From an uncultured Methanosarcinales archaeon (lineage in GTDB: Archaea; Nanobdellota; Nanobdellia; Woesearchaeales; 21-14-0-10-32-9): a stretch of DNA of 64,000 nucleotides. Below, in pieces: positions 12,939 to 33,332 of this stretch. The stretch lies in assembly GCA_964548665.1 (NCBI GenBank), contig CAZJQL010000001.1, forward strand, positions 5,462-69,461, given 5' to 3'. The notes under the pieces are model-generated. The model saw only the letters and a list, made by a program, of their open reading frames with translations, ran no database searches and was not told the origin of the DNA. Position numbers and translations under genes: made by a program. How positions within the stretch are numbered: the first letter of the stretch is position 1; each line of letters opens with the position of its first letter.

Positions 12939-12996
12939 AATTTATCTCTTATTTTGAATCCGCTCTGATTATTCATTTTAAATGATCATCTATTGC

Positions 12997-13114
12997 TATT
13001 CACGAATTTAACCATTCCAATCGCTACGTTGTTCTACGAGGGTGTTTATATAGGTATTTGAGCATCCCTCGACGTGAACATAGGAGGTAAACCACAATGG
13101 CAAAGAAAGCAGAC
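12997..13114 (+). promoter_or_regulatory. promoter/leader module copy B: TATA box tttatata (13045-13052), perfect 6-bp inverted repeat cgaggg(13037-42)/ccctcg(13066-71), SD, MAKKAD
   Basis: Direct repeat of 2861-2978. Confidence 0.55.
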
Positions 13115-13345
13115 AAATCGTTTTACACGTTAGCACAAAAAGTGCTCCAGGAACAAAACAAACCAATGCATTACGCAGACATAACAAAGGAGATCTTAAA
13201 GATCAAGGAAACCAAAGGCAAGACGCCAGAGCGAACAGTAATGGCAGTAATACTAAGAGACAAGCACAATATCTTTACAAGTGTAGGCGAGGGTATCTTT
13301 GGATTAAGCTCGTTTCAAAGTAGCCCAAAAGCTACCAAAGCTTAG
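13097..13345 (+). CDS. HARE-HTH domain protein (RpoE-delta/restriction-associated wHTH)
   Basis: 82 aa; the pattern A..VL......PMHY.DI...IL......GKTPE.TV.AVILRD...F..VGEGIFGL matches the HARE-HTH fold. Confidence 0.6.
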   Translation: MAKKADKSFYTLAQKVLQEQNKPMHYADITKEILKIKETKGKTPERTVMAVILRDKHNIFTSVGEGIFGLSSFQSSPKATKA

Positions 13346-13635
13346 AGAATTACGCTTGCCGCAACTATTCCTTTTTTGCTAAGGTGTGCAGAGAGCATTG
13401 AGTTAAACATTTTATTATGGCTAGAATATCTCAGATGTAAGAGTTCATGAACGATTACTTTGGATCTTGTCTGATAATTCTTATTGAGTAATGCGTATGA
13501 GAATGTGACTCTTCCCTTAGATGAACAGCTCGCCCATTTTCTACTCATTGCCCGTACATGAATTTCTTTAGGCTTCACCCCTATATCTTCTGCCCAATGC
13601 ATCACTTCTCTTTTGAAATCATTGACTGGAATCAT
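13342..13635 (-). CDS. DUF45/YgjP-like zinc metallohydrolase (short form), last gene of the Type I R-M operon
   Basis: SRKWASCSS...VIVHELLHL...HNKMF matches the DUF45 C-terminal catalytic half (HExxH). Start codon lies 2 bp past the hsdR stop. Confidence 0.65.
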   Translation of the reverse strand: MIPVNDFKREVMHWAEDIGVKPKEIHVRAMSRKWASCSSKGRVTFSYALLNKNYQTRSKVIVHELLHLRYSSHNKMFNSMLSAHLSKKGIVAASVIL

Positions 13636-16553
13636 TCGTTTGCACCTTTAAGCATCGTTGTTATCTTAGTGGTCAATTCGACAGTCTTTTTAACGGTTGT
13701 CCCTGATTTTACGAAAACTTTCTGGAGCTCTTGCTTTAATTTCCGCTCATGATCTTCACTTTTCTTCCAATGAGGATATTTTTCGAAAATATTTTTCATA
13801 CTGTTGGCTTTTTCTTCAGCATCACTTAAGCCTTCATCTTTTAATAGCCAATAGACTGAGAAGACGTCAGTGGACATCTTCATTTTCTTTTGTTCTTTTT
13901 TAGCGTGGTTTATCTCGGTAACGAGTTCTTTTAATTCATCAAGTGTTTCTTCAGTATCTTTTTGTCTTTGTTTGTAAAGCATAGAGATTAGCTCTGCTTT
14001 TTGGCCTATTGATACAAGGTATGGATTACTGCTTGCGCCATGCTCGATAGATATTCCGATGCTTCTTAAGAGATTGAATATTTTCTCTGTATCGGAAGAT
14101 TTGTTCTCATCAAGCTTCTTTAAAGTGGTCTCGTTTATCTCGTAAATTTCCAGAGTGGACTTTATCTTTCCGCTGTGGGTGTGTTCTTGGACAAGCTTCG
14201 CTGTTTTTCTTGTGAATTCTTTGTCAACAGATATTCCTGGTTCGTATGCTTCTCTTAATATCTTGAACATTCTTGCTAAGGTGTCAAATTCTTCAATGTA
14301 TGGTCTTAGGAATGCGTCTGGTGATAATATCTCATAGATGTCTGACATCTCTTTGAAGAATTGATAGAAGTCTTGTCTTTTTGTTTCGTCTTTGAAATAA
14401 TCGAGTACTGCTTCAACTGCTTTATCTTTGGTTTTTCCTTTCAGCAGCTTAAGATAATCTTTTCTTGCAGTAGTTATGAGTTCTTCAAATCGTTTCTTTA
14501 AGACTTCAAGATCTTTGACTACTTCAGTCACATCTCCAGAATCAAATGCGAGGGCTTTCTCAAGCTTGTCGAAAATTCCGACGAAGTCAAGAACAAATCC
14601 TGAAGGCTTCTTTCTGCCCTCTTCATCCTCATATGGTCTGTTGACTCTTGCAATTGCCTGCAATAAAACGTGATCTCTCATAGGCTTATCAAGATACATA
14701 CAGTAAAGGATCGGAGCATCAAATCCAGTCAATAATTTCTCAGTAACAATTAATATCTTCGGCTGTTTGTTAGGGCTTCTGAATGCTTTTCTTATTCTCT
14801 TTTCTTTTTCCGTTGTGATATAATATTTCGCTAAGTTTTCCTGGTCGTTATGTGCTGGACTGTAAACAACTTCTGAATATTCTTTTGGAAGATATTTGTC
14901 GATTTCTTCTTTGTATAATGCACACGCCTCTCTATCTACCGCAACGATAAAAGCTTTGTAGCCCATTGGCTCTACATTATTCTTGAAATGGTCTACTATG
15001 AATTTAGTGACTTTCTTTACTCTCTGCTTATTCTTCAGCATATTTTTGAGAGTGACTGCTTTTTCTAGGACCTTGTTTAATGATTCTATGTCACTTATTC
15101 CTTCTGCTTCTGCGAGGTTTAGGAATTCTTTTTCAAGAATTTCTTTCTCAGGTCTTATCTCATTAGGAGCTAATGTATAGTGGAGTTTGACTGTTGTTCC
15201 GTCTTCTATTGATTCTGCAATTCCATATTTGTCAAGATATCCTTTTGGAGGATCATCTCTTCCAAAGACCACAAATGTGCCTTTTCCATGAGAAGTCTTG
15301 TCAATTGGCGTTCCTGTAAATCCGAGATATGTTGCATTAGGTAAAGCTCCCATCAAGTAATTTCCTAAGTCTCCACCTGTTGTCCTATGTGCTTCGTCTA
15401 CAAGGACAATTATGTTTTTTCTGGTATTGATGTTTGCAGGTAATCCTTCAAACTTGTGAATCATAGAAATGATTAATCCTCTTGCGTCTCTTTCCAATAG
15501 ATCTTTCAGATGCTTTTTTGTTTCAGCAACTTCGATATGCTCAATGCCGACTGCAGTAAGATTTCCAAATAGTTGTGTCTCTAACTCATTTCTGTCGACA
15601 AGCATAATTACAGTTGGATTCTCGAAGAGCGGGTTTGCAAGGATTCTCTGGGCTGCAACAATCATGGTGAATGTTTTTCCGCTTCCTTGAGTGTGCCAAA
15701 CCAATGCCCTATTTTTCTTTTTGCTTGAAGCTCTCTCCACAAGCTTTTCAACTGCTCGCATTTGATGAGGTCTTAAGACGACCTTTTGCAGTTCATCATC
15801 TTGCCTTGTAAATAGTATGAAATGCAATAATGTTTTTACAAGCCTTTCCTTATCAAAGAAAGTCTTGACCATCTCTTCATAGTTCTTTGCAAGAGTGTCG
15901 GTCTTCCAATTGAAGACAGATTTCATTGACAACGACCATGTCGATGAATATAAGAAATGAATAATGTTTGTTGCAGTGTAGACTTGAAATAAGGTCATCG
16001 CTTCAGGAGTCTCTTTATGATATCTTCTGACCTGGTCTAATGCTTCTGCAATGATGGAGTCCCTGTTTACTGATCTTCCAATAAATTTAGCGACTGATTT
16101 TGTTTCGACAAAAAGGATAGGGACTCCGTTAATCAAAAACGCTACATCGTAACGATTTGTGTTTGTGCCGTTTGTATATGAGAATTCATCAGTAACTTGG
16201 AAAATGTTTCTTTTCGGGTTCTCATCGACGATTATGACATTTCTTTCTCTCTTTTCATTTTGAACAAATACTGTTTTTAATCCTCTTAAGTATTCCCACG
16301 CTTGAAGATTTCCCTCAATTCTTGCAGGCAATCGCTCAATCTTTTTGATGAGCTCTTCAATCATTATAGAGTCAATAAAATCAGAATTTAGCTTTCCGAC
16401 TTGTTCAGTAAAAACTTCCTTGAATAAAAGCCCAGTCTTTCCACCCCTAAGCCTAATTGCATCCTCTGGCTTGACATATTCCCATCCAATTTCACACGCA
16501 TATTGGATAAGTGTATTTTGGACTGCAGCTCTTTCGTTTCCCAATTTATTCAT
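13632..16553 (-). CDS. hsdR: Type I restriction enzyme R subunit
   Basis: 973 aa; N-terminal nuclease region, SF2 helicase motifs TQGSGKT and DEAHRT, C-terminal helical domain. Confidence 0.9.
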   Translation of the reverse strand: MNKLGNERAAVQNTLIQYACEIGWEYVKPEDAIRLRGGKTGLLFKEVFTEQVGKLNSDFIDSIMIEELIKKIERLPARIEGNLQAWEYLRGLKTVFVQNEKRERNVIIVDENPKRNIFQVTDEFSYTNGTNTNRYDVAFLINGVPILFVETKSVAKFIGRSVNRDSIIAEALDQVRRYHKETPEAMTLFQVYTATNIIHFLYSSTWSLSMKSVFNWKTDTLAKNYEEMVKTFFDKERLVKTLLHFILFTRQDDELQKVVLRPHQMRAVEKLVERASSKKKNRALVWHTQGSGKTFTMIVAAQRILANPLFENPTVIMLVDRNELETQLFGNLTAVGIEHIEVAETKKHLKDLLERDARGLIISMIHKFEGLPANINTRKNIIVLVDEAHRTTGGDLGNYLMGALPNATYLGFTGTPIDKTSHGKGTFVVFGRDDPPKGYLDKYGIAESIEDGTTVKLHYTLAPNEIRPEKEILEKEFLNLAEAEGISDIESLNKVLEKAVTLKNMLKNKQRVKKVTKFIVDHFKNNVEPMGYKAFIVAVDREACALYKEEIDKYLPKEYSEVVYSPAHNDQENLAKYYITTEKEKRIRKAFRSPNKQPKILIVTEKLLTGFDAPILYCMYLDKPMRDHVLLQAIARVNRPYEDEEGRKKPSGFVLDFVGIFDKLEKALAFDSGDVTEVVKDLEVLKKRFEELITTARKDYLKLLKGKTKDKAVEAVLDYFKDETKRQDFYQFFKEMSDIYEILSPDAFLRPYIEEFDTLARMFKILREAYEPGISVDKEFTRKTAKLVQEHTHSGKIKSTLEIYEINETTLKKLDENKSSDTEKIFNLLRSIGISIEHGASSNPYLVSIGQKAELISMLYKQRQKDTEETLDELKELVTEINHAKKEQKKMKMSTDVFSVYWLLKDEGLSDAEEKANSMKNIFEKYPHWKKSEDHERKLKQELQKVFVKSGTTVKKTVELTTKITTMLKGANE

Positions 16554-17083
16554 TTCAAATCCCCTAATAATTTCTCCATCTCAAAAATGAAGTTTTTAGC
16601 TCTCTTCAAAGAAGTAATTGCTTTAGAATGCTTCTCGACAGCAGTTGTTTCATACTGAAGAATGCCTCTTTTATTCCTTTCCTGATCGAATTCCTCAATT
16701 AACGTATCTGCCTTGATTCCAGGAAGGGCTTCATTCTGCGCTTCTTCGTACTCTTCCAATAATCTCTTCTTAAGTTTATTTCTTACATGAACAATAAGCG
16801 CATCAGCTGTAACTTTGTGAGGTATCTTATCCCCTACTTTGTAGCCTATCTTGAATAAGACTGCATTGGCCATATAAAACATCGAGTAATATGATGTGAC
16901 AATAATCCACAAATCTGATTTCTTGTTCTTCGCTAGAAATTCAGCAATCTCAATGCTATCATTGGAATTATTCAATAAGACTGTGATAATTTCTTCCCTG
17001 AATTGATGCTTTTTTAGCATACCTGATTGCAAGTATTCTCGGACATTAGCTTCTGCTTCCTTTATTCTTTTATCATCAAGCAT
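16550..17083 (-). CDS. HEPN-domain protein (putative toxin/RNase) paired with MNT
   Basis: 177 aa; all-alpha HEPN-like core (YYSMFYMANAVLFKIGYKVGDKIPH...). 8-bp overlap with the upstream MNT and 4-bp overlap with hsdR. Confidence 0.55.
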   Translation of the reverse strand: MLDDKRIKEAEANVREYLQSGMLKKHQFREEIITVLLNNSNDSIEIAEFLAKNKKSDLWIIVTSYYSMFYMANAVLFKIGYKVGDKIPHKVTADALIVHVRNKLKKRLLEEYEEAQNEALPGIKADTLIEEFDQERNKRGILQYETTAVEKHSKAITSLKRAKNFIFEMEKLLGDLK

Positions 17084-17642
17084 TGTTCATCAACCTATAA
17101 TAATCCTCTACTCCAAAAAGCACAATATTATGTTTAACTGCTTCAGACACGACGGTAAATTCCTTTGATTTTAGCATTGATTCAAAATTCTCATAAGTAA
17201 TATGAGTTAAGTGAATATTAAGAGGAAGCAAATTAACCTGAGTCTCAATCTTTTTAGAATTACTCGATATAAGCAATAAATCAATATCTGAACCTTTGGT
17301 CTGTTGACCCTTAGAATAAGAACCAAATAATAGCAGAATAAACTGCTCATTAACCTTAGCTAACCGATTATATAATACAAGGAAATTCTTGTCTTTTAAG
17401 AGCTCTTGAAGCCTCGTAAATTCGACTTGAAATACAGAATCATTGAACTTATGATTAAAAGAGCAAATAGTGGTGTTCCCCTGTTTTTTAAGACTAACCA
17501 CGCCTTCTTTCGCAAGATCTTTAAGACTCGTATAAGCGGATTTATAATTGATTTGCCTCTGAATTCCAATCTGCCTAATGCTAAATACTTTCTCCTGATT
17601 CTCGATAAGCAACTTCAATATATTCAAACGTTCATTATCCAT
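17076..17642 (-). CDS. minimal nucleotidyltransferase (MNT) with N-terminal wHTH
   Basis: LLLFGSYSKGQQTKGSDIDLLLI is the pol-beta-type NTase GS...DxD motif; N-terminal wHTH. Confidence 0.7.
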   Translation of the reverse strand: MDNERLNILKLLIENQEKVFSIRQIGIQRQINYKSAYTSLKDLAKEGVVSLKKQGNTTICSFNHKFNDSVFQVEFTRLQELLKDKNFLVLYNRLAKVNEQFILLLFGSYSKGQQTKGSDIDLLLISSNSKKIETQVNLLPLNIHLTHITYENFESMLKSKEFTVVSEAVKHNIVLFGVEDYYRLMNNA

Positions 17643-17682
17643 TGTAACCCATACAACTATGGTTTAAACCCATATATAAACT

Positions 17683-18219
17683 TTACTGTTTACTTTCGTG
17701 ATGTTCTTCCTTTTTCTTCCGCTTAAGCTTCTTAACAATCCAATCAATCACATTCTTCTTAATATCGAAATTAAAGACAGAAGCACTGATTAAATCTCCA
17801 ATAATGATAAAGATAAGAAATATATTGACGATAAAAACAACTTGATAATTGAAATAAAGCTTATTGTAAATAGCTACATAATTATTGTTCACAGTATCAA
17901 ATTTCTGATTGAGAATAGCAACATCATACCTTGAAATGTTAATCTCCTGCTTAAGATCTTCAATATCTTTTTTAGTTACGTTCTCAGTTATGAGACGAGT
18001 ATATTCAGCCCTGCACTGCTGTACATTCTGATCTAATTGACTATTTTGTTGCTTAAGGCCACTAATTTCAGAATCCTTCTGACCAACTTGAGTAATATAA
18101 GGAGCACACTGAGAATCAGTAGCTATCTTAGACAAAGAAGTAAAGACAGGAATCATAGCTAAGATGAACATCAAAGCCAAAAAGCCACCGACAATAACAG
18201 CAACAGGTCCTTCAGCCAT
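17683..18219 (-). CDS. membrane protein: TM - coiled coil - TM, basic tail; unknown function, inside the R-M operon
   Basis: 178 aa; N-terminal TM (AVIVGGFLALMFILAMIPVF), about 90-aa Q/N-rich coiled coil, second TM, KR-rich C-terminus; 1-bp spacing to hsdS. Confidence 0.45.
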   Translation of the reverse strand: MAEGPVAVIVGGFLALMFILAMIPVFTSLSKIATDSQCAPYITQVGQKDSEISGLKQQNSQLDQNVQQCRAEYTRLITENVTKKDIEDLKQEINISRYDVAILNQKFDTVNNNYVAIYNKLYFNYQVVFIVNIFLIFIIIGDLISASVFNFDIKKNVIDWIVKKLKRKKKEEHHESKQ

Positions 18220-18220
18220 C

Positions 18221-19516
18221 TTAAACCACCAAATCCTTCACTCTGACTTTAGCAGTCATAAGATCACGAAGCATAGAATTAAAGAACTCCTCAAGAGAAG
18301 CTTTCTTACGTTCCTCTGCTATGATCTTATCATCTAAAGCAGATAGAATATCTGATATTTGAATTTGAATATTTTTTTGTGGAACACCAATTTCAATATT
18401 ATCAATCAAATCTTTATTCAATCCACTTCTGTCTTCATCTCCTGTAATATTTCTAATTTTATCATAAATATTAGACAAGGCATAATGTAAATACATATAA
18501 TCTACTGATTCATTTGGGATAATGCAAACAACAGATTGATTAGATGTGCAAGGTATCTCCAGTGGTGCTGTTGTTCCTCTTGTTTTTCCTCTGCCAGCTA
18601 ATGCAATAACCACTGATTTAGGAGGTAACCATTTGGCATTTGAATTTTCCAATCCTTTTTTTGAAATAAAAGTATTCATTGATGCAATCTTTCTGCCTTG
18701 AACTTCTCCTGATTTCATCCAGGGGATCTCGGCAGGTTCCCAATACTCTTTTATTTCAGTTTTGGGAGTGCCACCTGCTATTAATTTGGAAAAATTCTTG
18801 ATTTTAAGAATTTTCCATTCGGCAGGAATTTTACCGATATCTGTATCTCGAAGCGTTACAGATTCAGCTTCTTCAGGAGTGGCCATTCCATAAGTGAACA
18901 AATGCTTCATCATGGATTTCTTCAATTCAGACAGTGAACTAATCACAGAATCCGTTTTCTCTTTTGATTCAAGTATGGCTAACAATACTGACGCTATTTT
19001 CTTCTGCTCGTCAATTTGAGGCAATATTGTAAGAAAGTTCTCAACAATTCCTTTGTTAATATTTTTCTGTGTACTCTGAATATTATGCATTGCTAACTGA
19101 GGAGCTAAATATTTCAATACAAAAGCACCAAACTCTACATTTAATTTTTCGTTTGGAATTATAGCGAGAATTGCCTGATTTGTTGCTACAGGAATTTTAT
19201 TTATTGCAGTCTCTCCAATTGTCGCATACATACTTAACAATAATGAATTTGGCGGAACTATCCAAGCACTTGATTCGTCTAATCCCTTTTTTGTGATAGT
19301 TTCTTTTGTTTTATACAAATAAATTCCGCAAGAGGTCATATCCTCTATAAGAACAAAAGGAATATCTCCATTAAAGTATTCCTTATTGCCTCGTTTAGGT
19401 GTTCCACCTGACCGCATCTTAATGGCTAAATCCTTTATTCTAATAAGATTCCAGCTTTCAGGTATCTCTCCCATTTCTGTTTGTTTTGTTCTTTCAAGGA
19501 CAGTTATATTTTTCAT
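18221..19516 (-). CDS. hsdS: Type I R-M specificity subunit
   Basis: 431 aa; two TRDs separated and followed by conserved coiled-coil repeats (LP..DEQKKIA; AEERKK...LL). Confidence 0.85.
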   Translation of the reverse strand: MKNITVLERTKQTEMGEIPESWNLIRIKDLAIKMRSGGTPKRGNKEYFNGDIPFVLIEDMTSCGIYLYKTKETITKKGLDESSAWIVPPNSLLLSMYATIGETAINKIPVATNQAILAIIPNEKLNVEFGAFVLKYLAPQLAMHNIQSTQKNINKGIVENFLTILPQIDEQKKIASVLLAILESKEKTDSVISSLSELKKSMMKHLFTYGMATPEEAESVTLRDTDIGKIPAEWKILKIKNFSKLIAGGTPKTEIKEYWEPAEIPWMKSGEVQGRKIASMNTFISKKGLENSNAKWLPPKSVVIALAGRGKTRGTTAPLEIPCTSNQSVVCIIPNESVDYMYLHYALSNIYDKIRNITGDEDRSGLNKDLIDNIEIGVPQKNIQIQISDILSALDDKIIAEERKKASLEEFFNSMLRDLMTAKVRVKDLVV

Positions 19517-21267
19517 TTTGATTCCTCTAATAAGCTGATGGGTTTCTTTTGATATTTTTCTGCTTTCTTCAAGAATAGTTTTGCTTTGGAAGGCTCGTGC
19601 AATGGTTTAATTGCTGCAGCTTTTATTCTCCATGCATCGCTGTTCTTCTCATTAAATCTGATCACTGCGTCGGCATCTTCTATTGCTTTATTCCATTGAT
19701 GCGTATCCAGGAAAGCTCTTGCTCTGTCCAATAAGAATTCTTCTTTTCTCCAGAGTCTTAATGCCTTATCAAAGTAATTCAATGCTTCTTTTGGTTTCTT
19801 TTTAGCTAATAGCACAACTCCTTTTTTATTTAGTACATAAGCATTTTTTGGAAAGAAGGTGTAGGCCAAATCAATAATTTCTTCTGCTGTTTGTATATTA
19901 CCAGAGTTTAAGAAAACAACAGTCTTATTTGACCAACCTAATGAGAAATTCTTGTCTTTTTCTATTGTTTTCTCAAAACACTCCAGAGCTAAATTAAGAT
20001 ATTTTTCTGTATTTTGATATTTTGAATTCTTCTCGTAAATAACTCCCTTGTTGTTTATTGAATTGACATTATCTGGCTCTTTTTTCAGCAGTTCTTCATT
20101 TAGTTTAAAGGCGTTTTTGAGGTCGATAAGTTCAATGTAAACATCTACTTTTAGGCTCTGTAGAACTGCTGATTTATTTACGTGCTCTTCTTTCTCATCA
20201 AGGAATTTCAAAGCTTCTTCTGATCTATCTAATGCTTTTAGTATCTCTGTCTTTGTTTGAATAGCGACAATAAAGATAGGATCAACTTCTAAAGCCTTTT
20301 CTACATAAGGCAGTGCTTCTTCAGGTTCACCTTGCCTATTTAGATTATGAGCCTTATTGTTTAATGCAAATTTATGTTTGGCATCAATTTCAAGAACAGC
20401 ATCATAGCAGACGGTCGACTCGTCAACCTTATCTATTCTTTCAAGAATAAATCCTTTGTTCAATAGTGCTTCTGTATTTTTAGGTGTTATCTCAAGTGAT
20501 TTATCCAAAAACATTAATGCATCGTCTTCTTTTTGTAATGCGAAGAAGAACATGCTCATTTTGGAGTAAACTAAAGCCTTGAGATTTATCTCAGTATCTT
20601 TCATATTGATTAATGCATTCTTGAGCTCTTCAGCAACTTCATGAGGATTATTCAGATTAATAGTTTTTGTAGTATTGAATTGGAATTGAATACCAAATCT
20701 TTTTCCTAAATCAGTAGACTGTTGAATTGCTGTTTCTGGTTTCTTTATATCGATTAATGGCGGAACTTCCTCGTCAGGAAAATACGCTTTGCATATGTCT
20801 GGAATCTCAAAAAGAAGATCTAAGAACTTTGTTCCTGTCCAATCGTTTATTTCGCACCTGTTCTTTTTATTCCAATTATCCATATCATCTTTGCAGTCAG
20901 GGGTTGAATCGGAATTCGATAGTATAAAGAATCTTTTTATTCCTTGATCTTGGGCTTTTTGAACTTCTGTAGAAAATTGTTTAAAATTAACTCCTGCTTT
21001 TTGTCTCTTGCATTGAAACCAGCATTTCTCACGTTTTTCTTCTTTGGCAATTTTTACAATAAACTCGGCTTCTAAGTCTCTGCCACCATCTCCTCCTTTT
21101 CCTCGAGTAATTGGATTAATAAAGTTATTTCTCTTGATGATATCATAGCAAAGATTCTGGAAATCGTCAGGAGATAATTCATTGAGAAGTTTCTTCCATT
21201 CTTCTCTTTTTTTAATCTCTTTTTGCTTCATATTAACATAACCTCTCCACCCAGAATTTAGCTTCAC
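19513..21267 (-). CDS. Mrr_cat-type PD-(D/E)xK nuclease domain fused to a C-terminal TPR-repeat array
   Basis: N-terminal roughly 170 aa: RGKGGDGGRDLEAE...WFQCKRQ matches the Mrr catalytic core. The rest is about 400 aa of TPR-like repeats. Confidence 0.6.
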   Translation of the reverse strand: MKLNSGWRGYVNMKQKEIKKREEWKKLLNELSPDDFQNLCYDIIKRNNFINPITRGKGGDGGRDLEAEFIVKIAKEEKREKCWFQCKRQKAGVNFKQFSTEVQKAQDQGIKRFFILSNSDSTPDCKDDMDNWNKKNRCEINDWTGTKFLDLLFEIPDICKAYFPDEEVPPLIDIKKPETAIQQSTDLGKRFGIQFQFNTTKTINLNNPHEVAEELKNALINMKDTEINLKALVYSKMSMFFFALQKEDDALMFLDKSLEITPKNTEALLNKGFILERIDKVDESTVCYDAVLEIDAKHKFALNNKAHNLNRQGEPEEALPYVEKALEVDPIFIVAIQTKTEILKALDRSEEALKFLDEKEEHVNKSAVLQSLKVDVYIELIDLKNAFKLNEELLKKEPDNVNSINNKGVIYEKNSKYQNTEKYLNLALECFEKTIEKDKNFSLGWSNKTVVFLNSGNIQTAEEIIDLAYTFFPKNAYVLNKKGVVLLAKKKPKEALNYFDKALRLWRKEEFLLDRARAFLDTHQWNKAIEDADAVIRFNEKNSDAWRIKAAAIKPLHEPSKAKLFLKKAEKYQKKPISLLEESK

Positions 21268-22159
21268 TTATTAGTTGTTTTGAGATTTCTTCAGAATTAT
21301 CAAAATAAGACGATAAAGCTGTTGTAATATTGCTTAACATGGAATCAGTTGCCAAATCTTTTAATGAAGGATTCTTTAAGGTATCTTCTATTTTTTGTTG
21401 ATTATCATGTATTTTTTTAAGATCTTTATCATTCATAAATCGTGATGCCAGAAATCCTATGTCTCCTGCAATGATAGGATCGACAATAGAAATCTGGCTT
21501 AAGGCTAATGCTTCTGAAATAGTCTGTATTGAGAATATATCCTCTATTTCCAGAACTTCTCCTATCGTTTTGTAGTTAGTTTCATAATCATAATCCTTTT
21601 TCCAATAGATATTCTTTAGGTCAATAACTGCAAGAAGACTTATTATGCATTTAGCGTTTTGATATTTCGAATATATCTCTTTTTCAAACCACTCCTCAAG
21701 ATCTTTTCGTGTGCTTAGATTTTTCGGCACTTTAGATGGCGGAATTATGCTTAATGCTCCACCAAGATTCTTAGATCCATAATTTTTCTCTATTTCTGTC
21801 TTTATGAATTTGAAATTCTTGCCATCAACTTTCTGATTGGCATATTGAAAAATGATTATAGGAAGAGGTTTTGAATATTTTTTAACTAAATTCTCTTTAG
21901 ATATTCCTTTTCTTTTTAAGGAAGTTATGACATAGCTATAATCTTTTTCAGTCTTCTCTTTGTCACTCAATGCTTCCTCTATTTTTTTATTCTTCGTCTC
22001 TACATCTTGTTTAAGATTCCTATTTTCTTCAATTAATAAGTCAATAAAACTCTGGTTTTGTATTTCTTGTTTTTTCTTTTTACTAAAAATTGAGATAATC
22101 TTATCTAGGACTTTACTTACAAACCACCCTATTATTGATTCTAACCACATCCTATTCAA
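21233..22159 (-). CDS. hypothetical protein: N-terminal TM helix, coiled coil, unknown C-terminal domain; between hsdM and the Mrr-TPR gene
   Basis: 308 aa; overlaps hsdM by 8 bp and the downstream gene by 35 bp (operonic). Confidence 0.4.
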   Translation of the reverse strand: MNRMWLESIIGWFVSKVLDKIISIFSKKKKQEIQNQSFIDLLIEENRNLKQDVETKNKKIEEALSDKEKTEKDYSYVITSLKRKGISKENLVKKYSKPLPIIIFQYANQKVDGKNFKFIKTEIEKNYGSKNLGGALSIIPPSKVPKNLSTRKDLEEWFEKEIYSKYQNAKCIISLLAVIDLKNIYWKKDYDYETNYKTIGEVLEIEDIFSIQTISEALALSQISIVDPIIAGDIGFLASRFMNDKDLKKIHDNQQKIEDTLKNPSLKDLATDSMLSNITTALSSYFDNSEEISKQLISEAKFWVERLC

Positions 22160-23669
22160 ACCCCATCTGCTCTAGGATTTTCTTGAGTTTTTCGTCAGCT
22201 TGTTTTCTTTCTTCTTCTGCTTCTCTTAACTGAACATATGCATCTTCAAGATCAAGTGTTTCATCAGTGCCATTCTGTGCAACGTATCGTGATGGAGAAA
22301 GGTTGTAGTCGTTCTTTGTTATTTCTTCAGCAGTCACTATTTTGCTTACTCCTTCCTCTTCTTTCCATTTCAAGTAGATTGATGCAATCTTGTCTACTGC
22401 TGAATCTGGCATGAAATTCTTTGGCCTTCCTTTCTCAAATAGCTTAGAGCCATTAATCAATAGAACTTTATTCTTGTGTTTCTTATCTTTATTTATGATA
22501 AGAATTATTCCTGGAGCAGTTGTATTATAGAATAGGTTTTCAGGCAATAATAGAACGGCTTCAATTATATCTGCTTCTATGAACTTCTTTCTTATGTCTC
22601 TTTCTCTGTTTGATCCTGCATTTCCTGAGCCACGAGATACTGCCCCTGTGTCTAAGACTACTGCTATTCTTCCTTTATTCTTTAGGGAAGCGAGCATATG
22701 TTGGACCCAACCCCAGTCTGCACTTGACGTTGTTGGATATCCGTAAATGAATCTTCCATATGCATCATTTTCGTAAGTGCTTTGAGGAAAACTGTCTTGA
22801 TTCCACATTGGATTAGCAACGACAATATCGAATTTACGCAAGTGACTGTCTGCTGTTGTGAATGCTGGCCTATTCATTGTGTCGCCAAGAGCTATATCTG
22901 CTTCCATATCGTGAATAAATGCATTCATTTTAGCCATAGCATAAGTTGTATGTAGGCTTTCTTGACCAAAGAATTTCAATGGTTTTACTTTTGTGTTGTC
23001 TCCATGTTTCTCTCTGAATCTCAAGAAACTCTTAATCAATAGTCCGCCTGATCCTAAGCAGGGATCGTATATTTCCTCTCCTTCTTTTGGGTCGAGAATG
23101 TGTGCCATAAGTATTCCTACTTCTTTTGGCGTATAGAATTCTCCTGCACTTTGCCCTGATCCTTCTGCGAATTTTCTTAAGAGGTACTCGTATGCTCTTC
23201 CTATTAAGTCTGGCTCAACATCTTTCTGACCAAGCCTATGTTTGTTTAATGTATCAATTAATGCTTTGATTTTATCGTCTGTGATTATTCTTTGGCCTGC
23301 AGCTGTTGCGTTGAAATCAACTATGTCTATGACTCCTTGCAGTTTAGGGTTTTCTCTTGCTATTGCTCTGACTGCGTCAGTAAGGTATTCTCCGAGTCTT
23401 GTGCTTTGTTTTATTATGTTTGACCATCTTGCATTTTCAGGAAGATAGAATCTTACGAGTGTGTGATCTTCTTCAACGAATTCTTTTGCAGTCTTTATGT
23501 CTTCATATTCTTCTGATAATTTTTGTATTTCATCGTCGAATACATCGCCAAGTCTTTTCAAGAATATAAGTGGTAAGATATAGTCTTTGTATTTTGGTGC
23601 GTCTATTTCCCCTCTGATTTTACACGCTGCTTCCCAGAGCCATCCTTCGAGTGTTTTGATATCTAGCAT
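22152..23669 (-). CDS. hsdM: Type I R-M N6-adenine DNA methyltransferase subunit
   Basis: 505 aa; HsdM N-terminal domain, SAM-binding motif I, catalytic NPMW (motif IV). Confidence 0.9.
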   Translation of the reverse strand: MLDIKTLEGWLWEAACKIRGEIDAPKYKDYILPLIFLKRLGDVFDDEIQKLSEEYEDIKTAKEFVEEDHTLVRFYLPENARWSNIIKQSTRLGEYLTDAVRAIARENPKLQGVIDIVDFNATAAGQRIITDDKIKALIDTLNKHRLGQKDVEPDLIGRAYEYLLRKFAEGSGQSAGEFYTPKEVGILMAHILDPKEGEEIYDPCLGSGGLLIKSFLRFREKHGDNTKVKPLKFFGQESLHTTYAMAKMNAFIHDMEADIALGDTMNRPAFTTADSHLRKFDIVVANPMWNQDSFPQSTYENDAYGRFIYGYPTTSSADWGWVQHMLASLKNKGRIAVVLDTGAVSRGSGNAGSNRERDIRKKFIEADIIEAVLLLPENLFYNTTAPGIILIINKDKKHKNKVLLINGSKLFEKGRPKNFMPDSAVDKIASIYLKWKEEEGVSKIVTAEEITKNDYNLSPSRYVAQNGTDETLDLEDAYVQLREAEEERKQADEKLKKILEQMGFE

Positions 23670-23681
23670 TTTGATTTACCC

Positions 23682-23819
23682 CTATTTCTTTTTGCGAAGA
23701 TCTTCTTCCATGAGTTTTTCGAATTGTCTTGAAACTATCCATCCTTCTTTTTTACAGAGCTCTCTGTATTTCTCATATAATTCAGAGTTTACCTTCAACG
23801 TGATGTTCTTTGTACTCAT
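23682..23819 (-). CDS. ribbon-helix-helix (CopG/Arc-like) small DNA-binding protein, first gene of the R-M operon (candidate controller)
   Basis: 45 aa MSTKNITLKVNSELYEKYRELCKKEGWIVSRQFEKLMEEDLRKKK: beta-strand then two helices. GAGGGGG SD. Ends 12 bp before the hsdM ATG. Not in the ORF track. Confidence 0.5.
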   Translation of the reverse strand: MSTKNITLKVNSELYEKYRELCKKEGWIVSRQFEKLMEEDLRKKK

Positions 23820-23968
23820 AAAACAACCCCCTCACTGGACATTTACACGCACATACTTATAAATGTTGCTATCGTGTAGAACACATTTCAGAATAAGTCA
23901 GGATTTACTTACCAAAAAGTGTCAATATTTAAGAAAATTTATAGAAGTCATAAGCAAAACATAGGACT

Positions 23969-24460
23969 TTATTCTCTTTTAGGTCCTTTCATTATTGCAT
24001 TACACCCATCACAAACTGGGGCTTGCTTAATTGCTACACTGACTGGAATCAGTTCTCTTTTATTACACCTAACGCATAGGCGATTAATAAGCGATGGATC
24101 TGGAGATCTGCTTTTAGGGAATACCTCATTCATTAATTCAAACGCTTTATCTTTGAAGAATGCATTAAAGCTTGTATGTATGGTTTTTTGTGTTTTATAA
24201 TTGCTCATTGAATCGGTTAGGTTCAAACACATTGGCTTTTTCTCGGCATAGAGTTCTGGCCAGTTCTCACGAAATTTGACATCATCTTCAGCATAAAAGA
24301 CACGAATTAAATCGCTCTCTTTCAATTTTATCGCAGTAGTTTCATCAGTTTTTGATAAATCAATGATTTGCAAGACTGCAATCTCTTTGAATATATTCAA
24401 AACATATCTTATGTGTTCTTCGTTCTTCCCGCCAATAATGGTTATTTTCTCGCTTAACAT
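23969..24460 (-). CDS. hypothetical protein with C-terminal CxxC...CxxC zinc ribbon
   Basis: 163 aa; C-terminal CVRCN...CDGCN; 1-bp gap to the ligase gene. Confidence 0.4.
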   Translation of the reverse strand: MLSEKITIIGGKNEEHIRYVLNIFKEIAVLQIIDLSKTDETTAIKLKESDLIRVFYAEDDVKFRENWPELYAEKKPMCLNLTDSMSNYKTQKTIHTSFNAFFKDKAFELMNEVFPKSRSPDPSLINRLCVRCNKRELIPVSVAIKQAPVCDGCNAIMKGPKRE

Positions 24461-24461
24461 T

Positions 24462-25259
24462 TTATTTGTCCTCCCTCACTCTTATTATTCTCGGAAATCT
24501 TAGTTTCTCAAAATCTCCTTTATTGAAAGATAGCTCAATTGTTGAGCCTATAGAATAATCTGCAGAGCTCATCACAGTCCCTGTTTTCTCGTTTTCTGAA
24601 ATATACTTGTAAACCCATGCTTTGTTGTCTTTTGTCTGTTTTTTCTCTATGATCTTGACGTCAATTGTTCGAATGGGTTTCATTTTAATCCAATTGAAGC
24701 GAGAATTTGGCTTGTAGCTTTCAAGATTCTTTATTACAATACCTTCAAATCCCGATTCTATAAGTTTCTTGTAAAGTCTTTCAACGTCGACGATTGTATT
24801 TGTAAATGTGTTTGGAACAATGTTTAAGCTATCATTCTCCTGGACAAAGAAATTGATGTGCTGTCTTCTTGTTACATAATCGGATTCAATCAAGCTGTTG
24901 CTATCAACTTCTAAGATGTCAAAAACAAAGAAGACAAATCTTTCATCGGAAAACAATTCTTTGGCAATTGCACGATGAGAACCTACAACTTTTCCTTTCT
25001 TTAATACGGCCATTTCACCATCAAGAATAATTCTTTCTGGAAGTATCCCCTTTCTAAGATCTTCTGCAATGGACTTATATCTGCTTGAATAATCCTTGCC
25101 ATTACGTGTAATGAGCTTTATTTCTGTTCCATTCTTTTCAAGAAGAATCCTTACCCCATCTATCTTAGGCTCTAAAGCAACAGCATCATTATTGTAGATA
25201 AAAGTTTCCACCTCTCCCTCTCCAACAAGCTGTGGCTTAAAGCTCGTCACATTTATCAT
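24462..25259 (-). CDS. minimal ATP-dependent DNA ligase (NTase + compact OB, 265 aa)
   Basis: Motif I EPKIDGVR, III LDGEMAV, IV EGIVIK, V WIKMKP, VI RFPRIIRVREDK; no DNA-binding N-terminal domain. Confidence 0.8.
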   Translation of the reverse strand: MINVTSFKPQLVGEGEVETFIYNNDAVALEPKIDGVRILLEKNGTEIKLITRNGKDYSSRYKSIAEDLRKGILPERIILDGEMAVLKKGKVVGSHRAIAKELFSDERFVFFVFDILEVDSNSLIESDYVTRRQHINFFVQENDSLNIVPNTFTNTIVDVERLYKKLIESGFEGIVIKNLESYKPNSRFNWIKMKPIRTIDVKIIEKKQTKDNKAWVYKYISENEKTGTVMSSADYSIGSTIELSFNKGDFEKLRFPRIIRVREDK

Positions 25260-25596
25260 CCTTCCTTACCTCCGACAAATCTGCATTTAATCTCTTGATG
25301 ACCCAACATCCTTGACCTTTAGAACTATGAGAACTCTTGAAGTATACCGCGAGAAGAGGAACAATATTGAACTCAATAGCCTTCTCAATTATTCCATGAA
25401 GGCCAGTCATTCTATAAACTACTTCTCGAGTACTTTTGACTTCCACCAAGAAAACCTCTTTTTTAGAGAATAATACTGCATCGCAGACAGAATATTGCCT
25501 TCTACCAGAAGCTGCAACTCTTTCTGTATGATATCCTTTATCTTTCATCATGTTGCAGAAGTCCCGTTCATATTGGAGATGACTTTTCAATCTCAT
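25237..25596 (-). CDS. hjc: Holliday junction resolvase Hjc (archaeal PD-(D/E)xK)
   Basis: 119 aa; GYHTERVAASG...CDAVLF...LVEVKST matches the Hjc E-D-E-K catalytic arrangement. Confidence 0.75.
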   Translation of the reverse strand: MRLKSHLQYERDFCNMMKDKGYHTERVAASGRRQYSVCDAVLFSKKEVFLVEVKSTREVVYRMTGLHGIIEKAIEFNIVPLLAVYFKSSHSSKGQGCWVIKRLNADLSEVRKDDKCDEL

Positions 25597-27115
25597 CAGA
25601 GATCACCTCCAATTCTTGCTCTGCAATCTCGCCAATCAGTTTAGCAATAGAAGATTTTCCGAGAACAACATCTTCGTGGCCTTTGTATTTTTCAAAGAGT
25701 TCTGTAAATCTTCTGAGTCTATCAAGCTCTAAATCCTTGTCAAACTTTATTCCTGCCTTATTGCAGAATGCTCTAAGAATATCAACTTTCTTCATCCATA
25801 AACAAAGAACACCTGCATGTTTTGCCCATTCGAAAAGCTGTTGTCCATTTGGATGATTCATAATCAAAACAGGCATTAATCTATGAGTTCCTGGAATAGG
25901 TTTCATGTCAAGAGATCTTCCATGAGACAAGCATCCAATCATAGAAGTGATGTATTTCTTTCCTGCACTTCCGAGATATTTTCCTTTCTTATCCCTCTTG
26001 ATTGAAACAGCAAATCCAAATATAGGAACTTTCAGCAATTGATCATAACAGAAAATCAAATAGTCTATTGGCTCAGAATCAAACCTCCAAACATCAACAA
26101 GCCTCTGCTCTTTCTCATTAGTATATCTCTTAATGTCGTTTGGATTAAACCAAGAAGGAATCCTCTTTGGAAAGTCCTTATTGAGTCGAATCTGCAGATT
26201 ATATCTCGAGATGAGATACATTACAAAGTAGAATATGGCTTGTTCTTCGAATCCATTTCCGAGAGTGGTCACATCCAATATACTTTTTACAACTTCTTCC
26301 TTATGCAGTTTAGGAGCCTGTTCGAGAACATAACTTTCAGGCATTGTTCTGTTGAAATAGTATCTTCTCTGCTTGAATGATACAACCTTAATCCAGCCGA
26401 CGCTGATAAACCTTACATCAAACCAACTTTTTATATCGCCATTAGTTACTTTGAATCGGTCCTTCATCATGTCAATATTATAGATATCATTGGACTGAGA
26501 AATGAGCAGGAAAGCACTTCTTACCTCTTTAGGCATAAGCTTCAAGATCTTATTATAGATGGCCAAATCATCTTTTCCGTAGACGTAGCCTGGTTTTCTG
26601 CCATGAATCATAGCATTGCCTGGCATCATAAAAGGACTTCTTTTGATGAGCTGCAACCTGATAAGATCATTCAGGCAGAAGTAAACATGATCATAATTCC
26701 CGTATTCCTTATAATACTCTTTTTCCCTCAATAAATAGAGAACTTCAGCAGTCGTATAGCCTTCTTCTGAAGACATCAACGCATCAAAGATTTCTTTTTT
26801 AATGCCTTGCAAGAACTCTTTCTCATCAGTTTTGCTATTTAGCTTCTGAATCTTCTGGTTGATATCATCCTGGCTCATGCCGTAAACAAAGACAGAACTG
26901 CACTTCCTGGCACTGCTCTGAGCCTTTTTCCTGCTCTTGATGATAAGATTGCCCTGCATGATCTGACGCAGGTAAGAAGAGATGTGGCAGTACCTGATGC
27001 CTCTGTCTTTGAAGGCGTCAAAAATCTCTTTTGTAGTAACTGCCCGTCTTTCCGTTATGAACTTATAAATCTGGAAAGTGATACTATTTTTGTCAAAAGT
27101 GATTTTATCGGCCAA
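25568..27115 (-). CDS. hypothetical 515-aa protein with two N-terminal winged-helix-like domains; candidate replication/initiator-type protein of unknown family
   Basis: No Walker A/B seen. 29-bp overlap with hjc (operonic). Confidence 0.35.
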   Translation of the reverse strand: MADKITFDKNSITFQIYKFITERRAVTTKEIFDAFKDRGIRYCHISSYLRQIMQGNLIIKSRKKAQSSARKCSSVFVYGMSQDDINQKIQKLNSKTDEKEFLQGIKKEIFDALMSSEEGYTTAEVLYLLREKEYYKEYGNYDHVYFCLNDLIRLQLIKRSPFMMPGNAMIHGRKPGYVYGKDDLAIYNKILKLMPKEVRSAFLLISQSNDIYNIDMMKDRFKVTNGDIKSWFDVRFISVGWIKVVSFKQRRYYFNRTMPESYVLEQAPKLHKEEVVKSILDVTTLGNGFEEQAIFYFVMYLISRYNLQIRLNKDFPKRIPSWFNPNDIKRYTNEKEQRLVDVWRFDSEPIDYLIFCYDQLLKVPIFGFAVSIKRDKKGKYLGSAGKKYITSMIGCLSHGRSLDMKPIPGTHRLMPVLIMNHPNGQQLFEWAKHAGVLCLWMKKVDILRAFCNKAGIKFDKDLELDRLRRFTELFEKYKGHEDVVLGKSSIAKLIGEIAEQELEVISDEIEKSSPI

Positions 27116-27244
27116 CGTCTATACCTCCAGAATTAGTAAGGAATAACCAATATAAAGCCCTAATTGGTAAGAAATATAGTAAGCTTAGTAAGAAAAGAAT
27201 AGAAAAAGAATTATAACAGGAAAACGCCCTAAATACCGAAGTAT

Positions 27245-27982
27245 TTAATCGTTATCGACTCTTGGTGCTAATATGAATTGTAGGCTTAACTTATCTTTTT
27301 CTAGGTATTCCAGAATTAAAGGATAGTCGTTGCTGAATTTTATTGTTGCTTTTGTTGCTAATTTTGATCCTTGCATCATTTTTTTTAGGTATTCTATTGA
27401 GTATTTGGATTTTTGTGTTGCTTCTGTTTCTATTTTCACTTGTTCATCTGGTTTTATTATTACTTCTGCTCTGTTTAGATCGCCTATCGAGGATATTATT
27501 AAAGATTCTTTGTCTGATTGTAGTATTACGCTTTCACCTACTATGTCCATGTCTTCTATTGCTTCGTTTAGAGTTGAGGACAATAGTTCTATTTTTGCTT
27601 TGGTTGTTAGTTGGGGTATTCTTTGTTGTCTTTCCTCTAAGTCTATTAGTGGAAGATAGAATGTTCTTGTTGTTTTTTCTTTCATAACTATTTTTAATTT
27701 ATTTTCTGTTTTTTCTATTGTGAGTTTGTCTGTAGGTTTTGTTCTTCTTAGTACTTGTTTTAGGTTATCTAGGTTTATTGCTATTGTTGTGTCTTCTTTT
27801 AATTCATATTCTGAGAACATTGTTGCTGGCATTTTGAATATTACCATTGCAACATTTGCAGGATCCATTGCGATTATTTCTATTTGATCTGGCGTTATTT
27901 TGAATTTTGTTTCTTTTACTAATTCGGAGATTATTGCTATGCTTTCTTTTAGAAATTTTGGTTCTGATAGGGTTAATTTCAT
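27245..27982 (-). CDS. pcn: PCNA sliding clamp
   Basis: 245 aa, two-domain PCNA pattern; N-terminal MKLTLSEPKFLKESIAIISELVKETKFKITPDQIEI. Confidence 0.8.
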   Translation of the reverse strand: MKLTLSEPKFLKESIAIISELVKETKFKITPDQIEIIAMDPANVAMVIFKMPATMFSEYELKEDTTIAINLDNLKQVLRRTKPTDKLTIEKTENKLKIVMKEKTTRTFYLPLIDLEERQQRIPQLTTKAKIELLSSTLNEAIEDMDIVGESVILQSDKESLIISSIGDLNRAEVIIKPDEQVKIETEATQKSKYSIEYLKKMMQGSKLATKATIKFSNDYPLILEYLEKDKLSLQFILAPRVDND

Positions 27983-33085: not shown

Positions 33086-33156
33086 GTTTCTGAGAATTTA
33101 AGTTCATTTATAAATTTTCCGATAGTTATCACTTTTGAGTAATAAATAAAATAAGT

Positions 33157-33332
33157 GCGGAGGGGGGGATTCGAACCCACGAACCCACTAAGGGACTAGA
33201 TTCCTCAAATCTTGCTTTAAAGCAATAGATTTCATTAGTGGAAAAGCCGGCGATGCAGTAATCACAGCCGGTTAGCTCATCACTCAAATTTCTTGAGTCT
33301 AGCGCATTTGACCAGGCTTTGCTACCTCCGCG
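33157..33332 (-). tRNA. intron-containing class II tRNA, probably tRNA-Leu(CAA); about 90-nt intron next to the anticodon loop
   Basis: 7-bp acceptor stem GCGGAGG/CCUCCGC, discriminator A, T-loop GGUUCGAAUCC, D-loop AGCCUGGUC. Anticodon stem halves CUAGA...UCUAG are split by about 90 nt. 15-nt variable arm CCC-UUAGU-GGG. CCA not encoded. Confidence 0.6.

Follow-up and report, generated by a model that had tools for sequence, protein, structure and literature searches.

We analysed a 64,000-nucleotide stretch (referred to throughout as the window) of archaeal contig CAZJQL010000001.1 (assembly GCA_964548665.1, positions 5,462 to 69,461 of the forward strand), with a focus on a gene at 24462..25259 that encodes a predicted ATP-dependent DNA ligase of 265 residues. 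The ligase gene stands behind two others, one for a protein of no known family, which we call P515, and one for an Hjc-like protein, and the variable DNA on its other side is rich in defence genes. A sequence-only reading of this DNA, made beforehand, had singled out the ligase as exceptionally small and as lacking a DNA-binding or latch domain. The following features make up the locus; coordinates are positions in the window, and comparison loci on other contigs are denoted by L and a number.

25568..27115, minus strand: P515, 515 aa, no known family (open reading frame (ORF), AlphaFold2, Foldseek, linkage)
25237..25596, minus strand: Hjc-like PD-(D/E)xK homologue of Holliday-junction resolvases, 119 aa (Pfam Hjc, PHROG)
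24462..25259, minus strand: predicted ATP-dependent DNA ligase, 265 aa (ORF, Pfam PF01068, motifs, AlphaFold2, Foldseek, ratio of nonsynonymous to synonymous substitution (dN/dS))
24675-25259, minus strand: nucleotidyltransferase (NTase) domain of the ligase, aa 1-195
24465-24674, minus strand: reduced OB domain of the ligase, aa 196-265
24462-24464, minus strand: stop codon of the ligase gene
23969..24460, minus strand: 163-aa accessory gene, variable fourth gene of the cassette (ORF; C-terminal CxxC...CxxC zinc ribbon)

Identity and completeness of the ligase

The ligase matches Pfam DNA_ligase_A_M at E=3e-34 (118.9 bits, above the gathering threshold of 26.2) and PHROG 114 (ATP-dependent DNA ligase) at 2.4e-36. 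Motif conservation was scored on an alignment of 26 sequences, namely the window ligase and 25 homologues, and the six motifs already picked out in the sequence-only reading (I, III, IIIa, IV, V and VI) proved recognisable in it. Motif I reads EPKIDGVR, with K32, D34 and G35 invariant and R37 present in at least 90% of the sequences; R52 is also conserved. Motifs III (LDGEM; D80, G81 and E82 invariant), IIIa (FVFDIL; F113 and D114 invariant), IV (EGIVIK; E172, G173 and K177 invariant) and V (WIKMKP; K192 and K194 invariant) stand in order within the NTase domain and align to solved ligases. Motif VI, LRFPRIIRVREDK, lies at the C-terminus, where it aligns with motif VI of the Pyrococcus furiosus ligase 2CFM, LRFPRFVALRDDK; F255 and R260 are invariant, and R262 and K265 occur in at least 90% of the sequences. 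The motif VI lysine, whose absence would have spoken against the sequence-only reading, is present as the very last residue of the protein.

An AlphaFold2 model built on the family alignment (mean predicted local distance difference test score (pLDDT) of 89.5) places the NTase domain before an OB barrel of five strands, residues 198-262. Foldseek searches with this model returned the catalytic cores of archaeal, human/eukaryal and viral ligases at E ~1e-20. Searched as a single sequence, the ligase has its best match to a solved structure in P. furiosus 2CFM (9e-22), and the best structure match of the family profile is A. fulgidus 3GDE (1.7e-36), with the A. fulgidus, P. furiosus and Thermococcus ligases all at 1e-33 to 1e-36. 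Chlorella virus ligase (ChVLig) and T7 ligase, against which the sequence-only reading had proposed to align the protein, are both matched by the family profile, at ~1e-10 (6e-11 to 2e-9) and ~1e-4, and the archaeal ligases are far closer. Judged by these matches and by the model, the 265-aa gene is a genuine and complete two-domain (NTase + OB) ATP-dependent DNA ligase, whose identity and chemistry are secure by homology.

There is a secondary match to Pfam RNA_ligase (PF09414, 1e-7, 32.7 bits, cut-off 27), and the gene adjoins defence genes, both of which would suit an RNA-repair ligase that reverses RNA damage done by the defence nucleases of the island. We consider such a function highly improbable, as the DNA_ligase_A_M score is far higher, the OB domain carries a DNA-ligase-type motif VI, and the partner protein is a homologue of Holliday-junction resolvases, which act on DNA; moreover, no kinase, phosphatase or RtcB-type healing enzyme is encoded within the cassette.

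Given that archaeal ligases are about 550-570 aa long, and that the gene overlaps its upstream neighbour and abuts its downstream one, we considered whether it might be a pseudogene left by truncation, or one piece of a longer ligase that a frameshift has divided among the adjacent ORFs; the sequence-only reading had named a fusion with 23969-24460 as a possibility. We give this explanation almost no credence. An in-frame stop lies only two codons before the ATG, so an N-terminal extension of the ORF is impossible, and the start is preceded by an SD-like (Shine-Dalgarno-like) GGAGG (GGAGGT). A word-index search returned 25 relatives of 264-278 aa, and an exhaustive search covering 1.84 billion representatives yielded ~13 clusters at 50% identity among 37,230 ligase-superfamily representatives, all of 262-289 aa and aligned end to end, beyond which the next matches were canonical ligases of 450-660 aa. 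The termini are kept as well as the lengths: 24 of the 26 family members end 0-8 residues past the motif VI lysine. Relative to L010, the closest relative, the ligase has a dN/dS of 0.09, which points to purifying selection, and its model is a compact, confidently predicted two-domain fold. The upstream neighbour is an Hjc homologue with its own SD motif. The downstream 163-aa gene is a separate one: it starts 1 nt beyond the ligase stop, has its own SD (GGAGG) and encodes a protein without ligase similarity; this protein has no family match in Pfam, NCBIfam, PADLOC or PHROG, and its homologues were found in only three other loci (L010 at 1.6e-98; L004 and L007, N-terminal part, at ~6e-9). A fragment or frameshift was therefore rejected on the conserved lengths and termini, the purifying selection and the separate SD motifs.

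Reduced architecture and comparison with known ligases

The protein consists of an NTase domain of ~195 aa and an OB domain of 70 aa. Compared with the P. furiosus ligase, the entire N-terminal DNA-binding domain (DBD) is gone (~220-240 aa; motif I at K32), and the Pfam scan gave no match of the window ligase to PF04675 (DNA_ligase_A_N). The OB domain is ~33 residues short, with query residues 210-237 standing opposite ~61 P. furiosus residues, and the ~27 residues that follow motif VI in the P. furiosus ligase are missing. There is no latch either: ~6-8 residues lie between OB strands 198-208 and 215-220, and the loop joining the first two OB strands is the lysine-rich KKQTKDNK (aa 204-212). 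The absence of DNA-binding and latch domains, as first described from the letters alone, thus holds in the Pfam scan, the alignment and the AlphaFold2 model. By inspection, the N-terminus (MINVTSFKPQLVGEGEVE) has no hydrophobic stretch and leads directly into the NTase domain. A canonical PCNA-interacting (PIP) box, Qxx[ILMV]xx[FYW][FYWL], is absent from 25 of the 26 family members, including the window ligase, and no canonical motif was found on scanning P515, the Hjc-like protein and the 163-aa protein. The ligase may still contact PCNA in a non-canonical way.

The ligase falls below every curated NCBIfam cut-off, as it scores 107.1 bits against TIGR00574 (dnl1; cut-off 217.8) and 27.1 bits against the Lig E-type model NF006592/PRK09125 (cut-off 200); this is why an NCBI homologue of the ligase carries the name "hypothetical protein". 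Matches were also obtained to NCBIfam NHEJ_ligase_lig (1e-27) and to 1VS0 of M. tuberculosis (1e-18).

With 265 residues against 298, the protein is indeed smaller than ChVLig, by 33 aa. It is not exceptionally small, however, since the mature Lig E of Psychromonas (Psy-Lig), called the smallest ligase structurally studied, has 257 residues (PMC4220977), a 2021 survey listed 17,011 ligases of 250-370 residues (PMC8455567), and ligases of 260-276 aa were found here. Like the window ligase, Lig E proteins (Psy-Lig, Ame-Lig, Nme-Lig, Hin-Lig) consist of NTase and OB domains in the same size class, without a DNA-binding domain or latch, and the KKQTKDNK loop sits where Psy-Lig has a lysine fork, which in turn takes the place of the ChVLig latch (PMC4220977). 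Lig E is proteobacterial, carries a periplasmic leader peptide and clusters with viral ligases (PMC8455567), whereas the window ligase is archaeal, has no hydrophobic N-terminus and is locked to the genes for P515 and the Hjc-like protein. On these comparisons, we regard it as a Lig E-like minimal scaffold and not as a member of Lig E. ChVLig is likewise a minimal, pluripotent two-domain enzyme with the same six motifs, but its OB domain bears a 30-aa lysine-rich latch that encircles DNA (PMC4220977) where the window ligase has an 8-residue loop, and the window ligase is not viral.

A different kind of likeness is offered by bacterial LigC and the ligase domain of LigD (1VS0 belongs to this group), which are also DBD-less and stand in operons with partners that bind or process DNA ends. 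They are accessory ligases of non-homologous end joining (NHEJ) and stationary-phase repair, and their partners are Ku, Prim-Pol and a phosphoesterase, in contrast to the multi-winged-helix, nuclease-like protein and Hjc-like resolvase found here. Small ligases were also encountered on Nitrososphaerota/Thaumarchaeota contigs of metagenome-assembled genomes (MAGs; L014-L020; 274-276 aa, for example L015 9947-10774), ending LRGAFILRVRHDK, and on an IMG/VR contig (260 aa). These consist of an NTase domain and a mini-OB domain ending at motif VI, and are 27-30% identical to the window ligase; unlike it, they show a gap between motifs III and IIIa, and homologues of P515 and Hjc were not detected in their loci. 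The Nitrososphaerota proteins look like another, independently minimal archaeal lineage.

The closest relatives in both sequence and fold are the archaeal Lig1-type ligases (3GDE, 2CFM, 3RR5/4EQ5), which match in motifs I-V and share the motif VI pattern LRFPR(F/I)xRxRxDK. The window ligase differs from them in having no DBD, an OB domain of 70 aa, no C-terminal extension and no PIP box, and, whereas Lig1-type ligases are universal, its family is rare and horizontally exchanged. As judged by sequence, then, the window ligase is distinctive by its ancestry: it would be reduced from the archaeal Lig1 type and would not descend from a viral or Lig E lineage.

The cassette, its exchange and its surroundings

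The 119-aa Hjc-like protein matches Pfam Hjc at 1.4e-9 (38.2 bits, cut-off 21.1) and PHROG Holliday junction resolvase at 1.4e-7. Its predicted catalytic residues D39, E52 and K54 are invariant and E14-R15 is conserved (compare P. furiosus E9, R10, D33, E46 and K48). As it scores 25 against the NCBIfam Hjc equivalog model, whose cut-off is 70, it was considered a divergent Hjc member. Its dN/dS between the window and L010 is 0.04.

P515 gave no match in Pfam (and nothing useful when 22 members were searched with E allowed to reach 1), NCBIfam, PADLOC or PHROG, and its 23 homologues are all unnamed or 'hypothetical', the named ones belonging to Woesearchaeota. Its AlphaFold2 model (pLDDT 75, predicted template modelling score (pTM) 0.41) contains three winged-helix domains (about aa 10-80, 98-180 and 196-255) followed by a C-terminal alpha/beta domain that is PD-(D/E)xK-like (aa 338-453, with P349-x-D351 ... 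S371-x-K373). Foldseek matches were weak and included tandem-winged-helix proteins and, at E=2e-3, the restriction enzyme BstEII. Residues D341, D346, P349, D351, D358 and K373 are invariant even at 28-29% identity, and position 371 is S, T or N across homologues, giving (S/T/N)371-x-K373, a signature that may resemble the PD...SxK variant of the Cfr10I/NgoMIV restriction enzymes. Between the window and L010, a single residue has changed in 515 despite 5% nucleotide divergence (dN/dS = 0.0025), and on this estimate P515 is under extreme purifying selection.

Linkage was counted over places where a family member is readable with flanking DNA, that is, the window and 12 loci. A P515 homologue lies directly upstream of the ligase in 13/13 of these places, with ligase identity down to ~26-31%, and an Hjc-like gene of 118-135 aa stands between the two in 11/13, being absent in L008 and L049. 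In the window, P515 and the Hjc-like gene overlap by 29 nt, and the Hjc-like gene and the ligase by 23 nt; the latter overlap is kept in every locus with all three genes except the distant L047, and a GGAGG motif is present for each cassette gene. The best reading of this arrangement is that P515, the Hjc-like gene and the ligase form a conserved cassette predicted to be translationally coupled, in which the linkage of the family appears obligate as seen so far. The sequence-only reading had noted neither these partner genes nor the signs of horizontal exchange, which are of greater interest than the small size.

Some variation was noted among the distant loci. The ligase of L047 (2113-2901, 262 aa) ends ...HFPRIVRVHY, without the terminal D-K of motif VI, and in L008 (185-2567) and L049 (3-1095) P515 is followed directly by the ligase. 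Upstream of the cassette, the 14-nt motif TTAGTCnTATTCAA occurs once per locus, 115-140 nt before the P515 start, in seven loci (L001 8013-8026, L003 8017-8030, L004 8018-8031, L005 8020-8033, L009 2150-2163, L011 5890-5903 and L013 8018-8031), where it marks the onset of conservation; it does not occur in that form in the window or L010. It may be an operator or recognition site. We rejected it as a paired element end because each locus has just the one copy and neither the window nor L010 contains it.

The closest comparison locus, L010, also bears on the exchange of the cassette. RNase J and PCNA can be recognised there as orthologues of those in the window, and next to them lies a block of ~3.3 kb that is 92-95% identical in nucleotides, as found by blastn, sliding identity and synonymous divergence (dS):

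24000..27256, minus strand: exchanged block, comprising P515 with its upstream region, the Hjc-like gene, the ligase and most of the 163-aa gene
27245..27982, minus strand: PCNA sliding clamp, outside the exchanged block (Pfam PCNA_N, PCNA_C)

Between the window and L010, protein identity is 60% for RNase J (dS 3.1) and 68% for PCNA (dS saturated). For the cassette it is 99.8% for P515, 96.6% for both the Hjc-like protein and the ligase, and 92-94% for the 163-aa protein, with dS within 0.18-0.47 for all four. The edges of the block are sharp, falling in the last codons and stop of PCNA (~27256) and ~30 nt before the stop of the 163-aa gene (~24000), past which the two genomes carry unrelated Type I restriction-modification (R-M) islands in opposite orientation. 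So large a contrast in dS between adjacent genes requires recent transfer or recombination of the 3.3-kb block, and indicates that the cassette was recently exchanged horizontally. In five other loci with cassettes 73-76% identical, nucleotide homology is limited to the cassette: it stops 0-11 nt from the ligase stop (one pair that shares the fourth gene excepted) and within ~100 nt of the P515 start. Relative to PCNA and RNase J, the cassette and the variable region run the other way round in L012 and L013.

The side of the cassette 3' of the ligase differs in every genome and is rich in defence genes. In the window, it holds the following island:

13632..23819, minus strand: variable defence island, directly 3' of the cassette (Pfam, PADLOC)
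23682-23819, minus strand: RHH-like (ribbon-helix-helix-like) 45-aa ORF, just upstream of hsdM
22152-23669, minus strand: HsdM
21233-22159, minus strand: 308-aa unknown protein
19513-21267, minus strand: Mrr_cat nuclease fused to TPR repeats (PADLOC PDC-M58A, 8.5e-9)
18221-19516, minus strand: HsdS
17683-18219, minus strand: small ORF with a weak DndD match
17076-17642 and 16550-17083, minus strand: PDC-M05A/PDC-M05B-like pair (PADLOC)
13632-16553, minus strand: HsdR

This island has no similarity to the one at the same place in L010. Type I R-M systems stand beside the cassette in the window, L001, L003, L004, L009 and L010, a Type IIG MmeI-like enzyme in L005, Shedu with a Type III R-M system in L008, SocA, AHJR, RadC and TIR in L009, and Mrr in L013; toxin-antitoxin genes are also among the hypervariable 3' content. 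The cassette thus borders a hypervariable island of defence genes.

Several further observations concern these flanks. The Type I R-M locus of the window is broken up by extra genes, and L005 has a weak Pfam RHH_1 match at the same relative position as the 45-aa ORF of the window. A RadC-like (JAB) gene recurs 3' of the ligase at varying distance, with 73-75% nucleotide identity between loci (L004 11584-12246, L007 11246-11908 and L009 7630-8286), and L004 11182-11501 is 82% identical to L010 11314-11630, above the cassette identity of that pair (70%), which suggests that small downstream genes are shuffled between loci. On the other side, a 928-aa ORF between RNase J and PCNA (28044-30830, minus strand) matches nothing in Pfam, NCBIfam, PADLOC or PHROGs. 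L010, though otherwise collinear, does not have it, and its RNase J and PCNA genes stand only ~800 bp apart. An apparent intron-containing tRNA, seen by eye at ~33150-33330 (minus strand), 6 kb from the cassette, was missed by ARAGORN and by Rfam at its gathering threshold; it has a 5' half GCGGAGGTAGCAAAGCCTGGTCAAATGCGCTAGACTCAAGA, an insert of ~110 nt and a 3' half ending GGGTTCGAATCCCCCCCTCCGCA. Its halves are 93% identical to L010 116-172 and 282-343, and the insert is not conserved.

The genes around the locus point to a cellular host. The window encodes a thermosome, Hsp20, MoxR/VWA proteins, PCNA, two RNase J-like proteins and a ribosomal operon (L3, L4, S3, S4e, S5 and SecY). Proteins named Candidatus Woesearchaeota or Nanoarchaeia share 62-66% identity with the L3 of the window, and the named ligase homologues are likewise from Woesearchaeota. 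As far as gene content and L3 can tell, the window is chromosomal DNA of a Woesearchaeota-like DPANN archaeon. The L010 contig (CAZOPU010000005.1), in which RNase J, PCNA and the cassette are collinear with the window, belongs to a GTDB MAG titled 'uncultured Methanosarcinales archaeon'; given the Woesearchaeota/Nanoarchaeia-like L3 of the collinear window, it is probably mis-binned or mislabelled.

The sequence-only reading had implied a viral or plasmid setting by its remark that minimal ligases are typical of such elements, and a ligase of an integrated provirus or plasmid has some points in its favour, as minimal ligases are common in viruses (PMC8455567) and the cassette is horizontally exchanged. 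In one locus (L007 833-7524), the DNA directly upstream of the cassette encodes a D5_N/DUF5906 primase-helicase and, on one strand, ~12 small ORFs without annotation, and looks like an integrated virus or plasmid remnant abutting the 5' side of the cassette. However, in the window and 12 other loci the vicinity of the cassette contains no genes for capsid, terminase or integrase, the best IMG/VR relatives of the ligase are only 26-29% identical and come without P515 and Hjc, P515 has no PHROG match, and housekeeping genes flank the cassette. The implied setting was not borne out, and we consider a viral or plasmid origin of this kind very unlikely.

Proposed role of the ligase and its partners

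The invariant, overlapping linkage of P515, the Hjc-like gene and the ligase speaks for the three acting together. The best explanation overall, which we consider likely, is that the ligase serves a mobile cut-resolve-seal module as an accessory enzyme that seals nicks. The ligase identity, completeness and fold, the conservation and linkage of the family, the purifying selection, the exchange and the adjacency to defence genes are direct observations; from them we infer an enzymatic activity, a physical complex, the nicks that would be sealed and a biological role, as follows. The ligase would be active and cytoplasmic, derived from a Lig1-type enzyme by loss of the DBD, of ~33 OB residues and of the C-terminal helix. 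K32 would be adenylated by ATP with the aid of motif VI of the OB domain, the AMP would pass to the 5'-phosphate of a nick, and attack by the 3'-OH would then seal it. The winged helices of P515 most probably supply the DNA binding and targeting that the ligase lacks, and P515 could possibly also cleave DNA. One or both putative nucleases would make the cuts or resolve branched intermediates, with the Hjc-like enzyme yielding nicked duplexes, and the ligase, as the sealing subunit, would close the resulting nicks. The cassette would then be an accessory, exchanged recombination or repair module at an island edge in a subset of Woesearchaeota-like DPANN archaea. Its purpose could be the repair of self-inflicted restriction breaks, recombination at the defence hotspot, or its own spread and the capture of cargo.

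An alternative is that the protein is the sole replicative ligase of a genome-reduced DPANN archaeon, which seals Okazaki fragments while PCNA provides the encirclement of DNA. PCNA adjoins the cassette in the window and L010 and lies ~6 kb off, convergent, in L012 and L013, the nearest sequence relatives are the archaeal replicative Lig1-type ligases, and archaea usually have one ATP-dependent ligase per genome (PMC3914693). A phmmer search against all window ORFs found no second ligase within the 64 kb, which says little because the window covers only a fraction of the genome. The distribution, however, does not fit: among the species genomes scanned, only 4 contain the family, and its ~25 clusters at 90% identity compare with more than 120 for L3 from that clade. 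Furthermore, the genomes between which the cassette was recently exchanged have PCNA proteins that differ by 32%, most loci have no nearby PCNA, and neither the ligase nor its two partners have a PIP box. Because the family is rare, horizontally exchanged and without a PIP box, the ligase is probably accessory rather than replicative, and we regard the replicative alternative as quite unlikely.

The same cassette could be read more boldly, as an autonomous 'cut-resolve-seal' machine for DNA mobility or recombination that is free of integrase and transposase. Here, P515 would act as a winged-helix nuclease with sequence specificity and break the target; the recombination intermediate would then be resolved by the Hjc-like enzyme and sealed by the ligase, so that the cassette could spread by homing or could capture and exchange the defence cargo on its 3' side. 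We hold this to be unlikely, though conceivable; if true, the cassette would be an archaeal element of a kind not described before, one that is mobile or that builds defence islands.

Several findings weigh against a mobile nuclease-ligase module of the kind we favour. In the nuclease signature of P515, the acidic residue that canonically stands in the middle is missing, and the structural matches of P515 are weak (E ~1e-3). PADLOC (DB 2.0) has no model match for the ligase, P515 or the 163-aa protein, and the match of the Hjc-like protein is marginal (0.0044). No integrase, transposase or target-site duplication was found that would define a mobile element, and the search for terminal inverted or direct repeats between 27080-27300 and 12900-13700 or 23650-24000 gave only chance matches of 7-9 nt; ARAGORN found no tRNA integration site in the window or seven loci. 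The presence of PCNA beside or near the cassette in four loci would fit housekeeping replication or repair, and a recombination hotspot next to a conserved operon might by itself account for the defence genes found there.

Minimal ATP-dependent ligases were already known, and what is added here is a newly described DPANN lineage that appears to have been reduced independently from the Lig1 type. The literature searched (Woesearchaeota and DPANN ligases, Hjc with ligase, ligases of defence islands) contains no description of the family or cassette, and the P515-Hjc-ligase gene partnership is new in that sense. With an OB domain (70 aa) among the shortest complete ones and an end exactly at motif VI, the ligase would test how small a scaffold for nick sealing can be and whether a partner protein can take over the binding of DNA, and it is a candidate compact enzyme for biotechnology. 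DPANN archaea are thought to have pared-down repair repertoires, and to our knowledge it is not known how their defence islands are assembled. Taken together, the linkage of the three genes, their position at an island border and their horizontal exchange point to an accessory module of DPANN archaea, for recombination or repair, that has so far gone undescribed.

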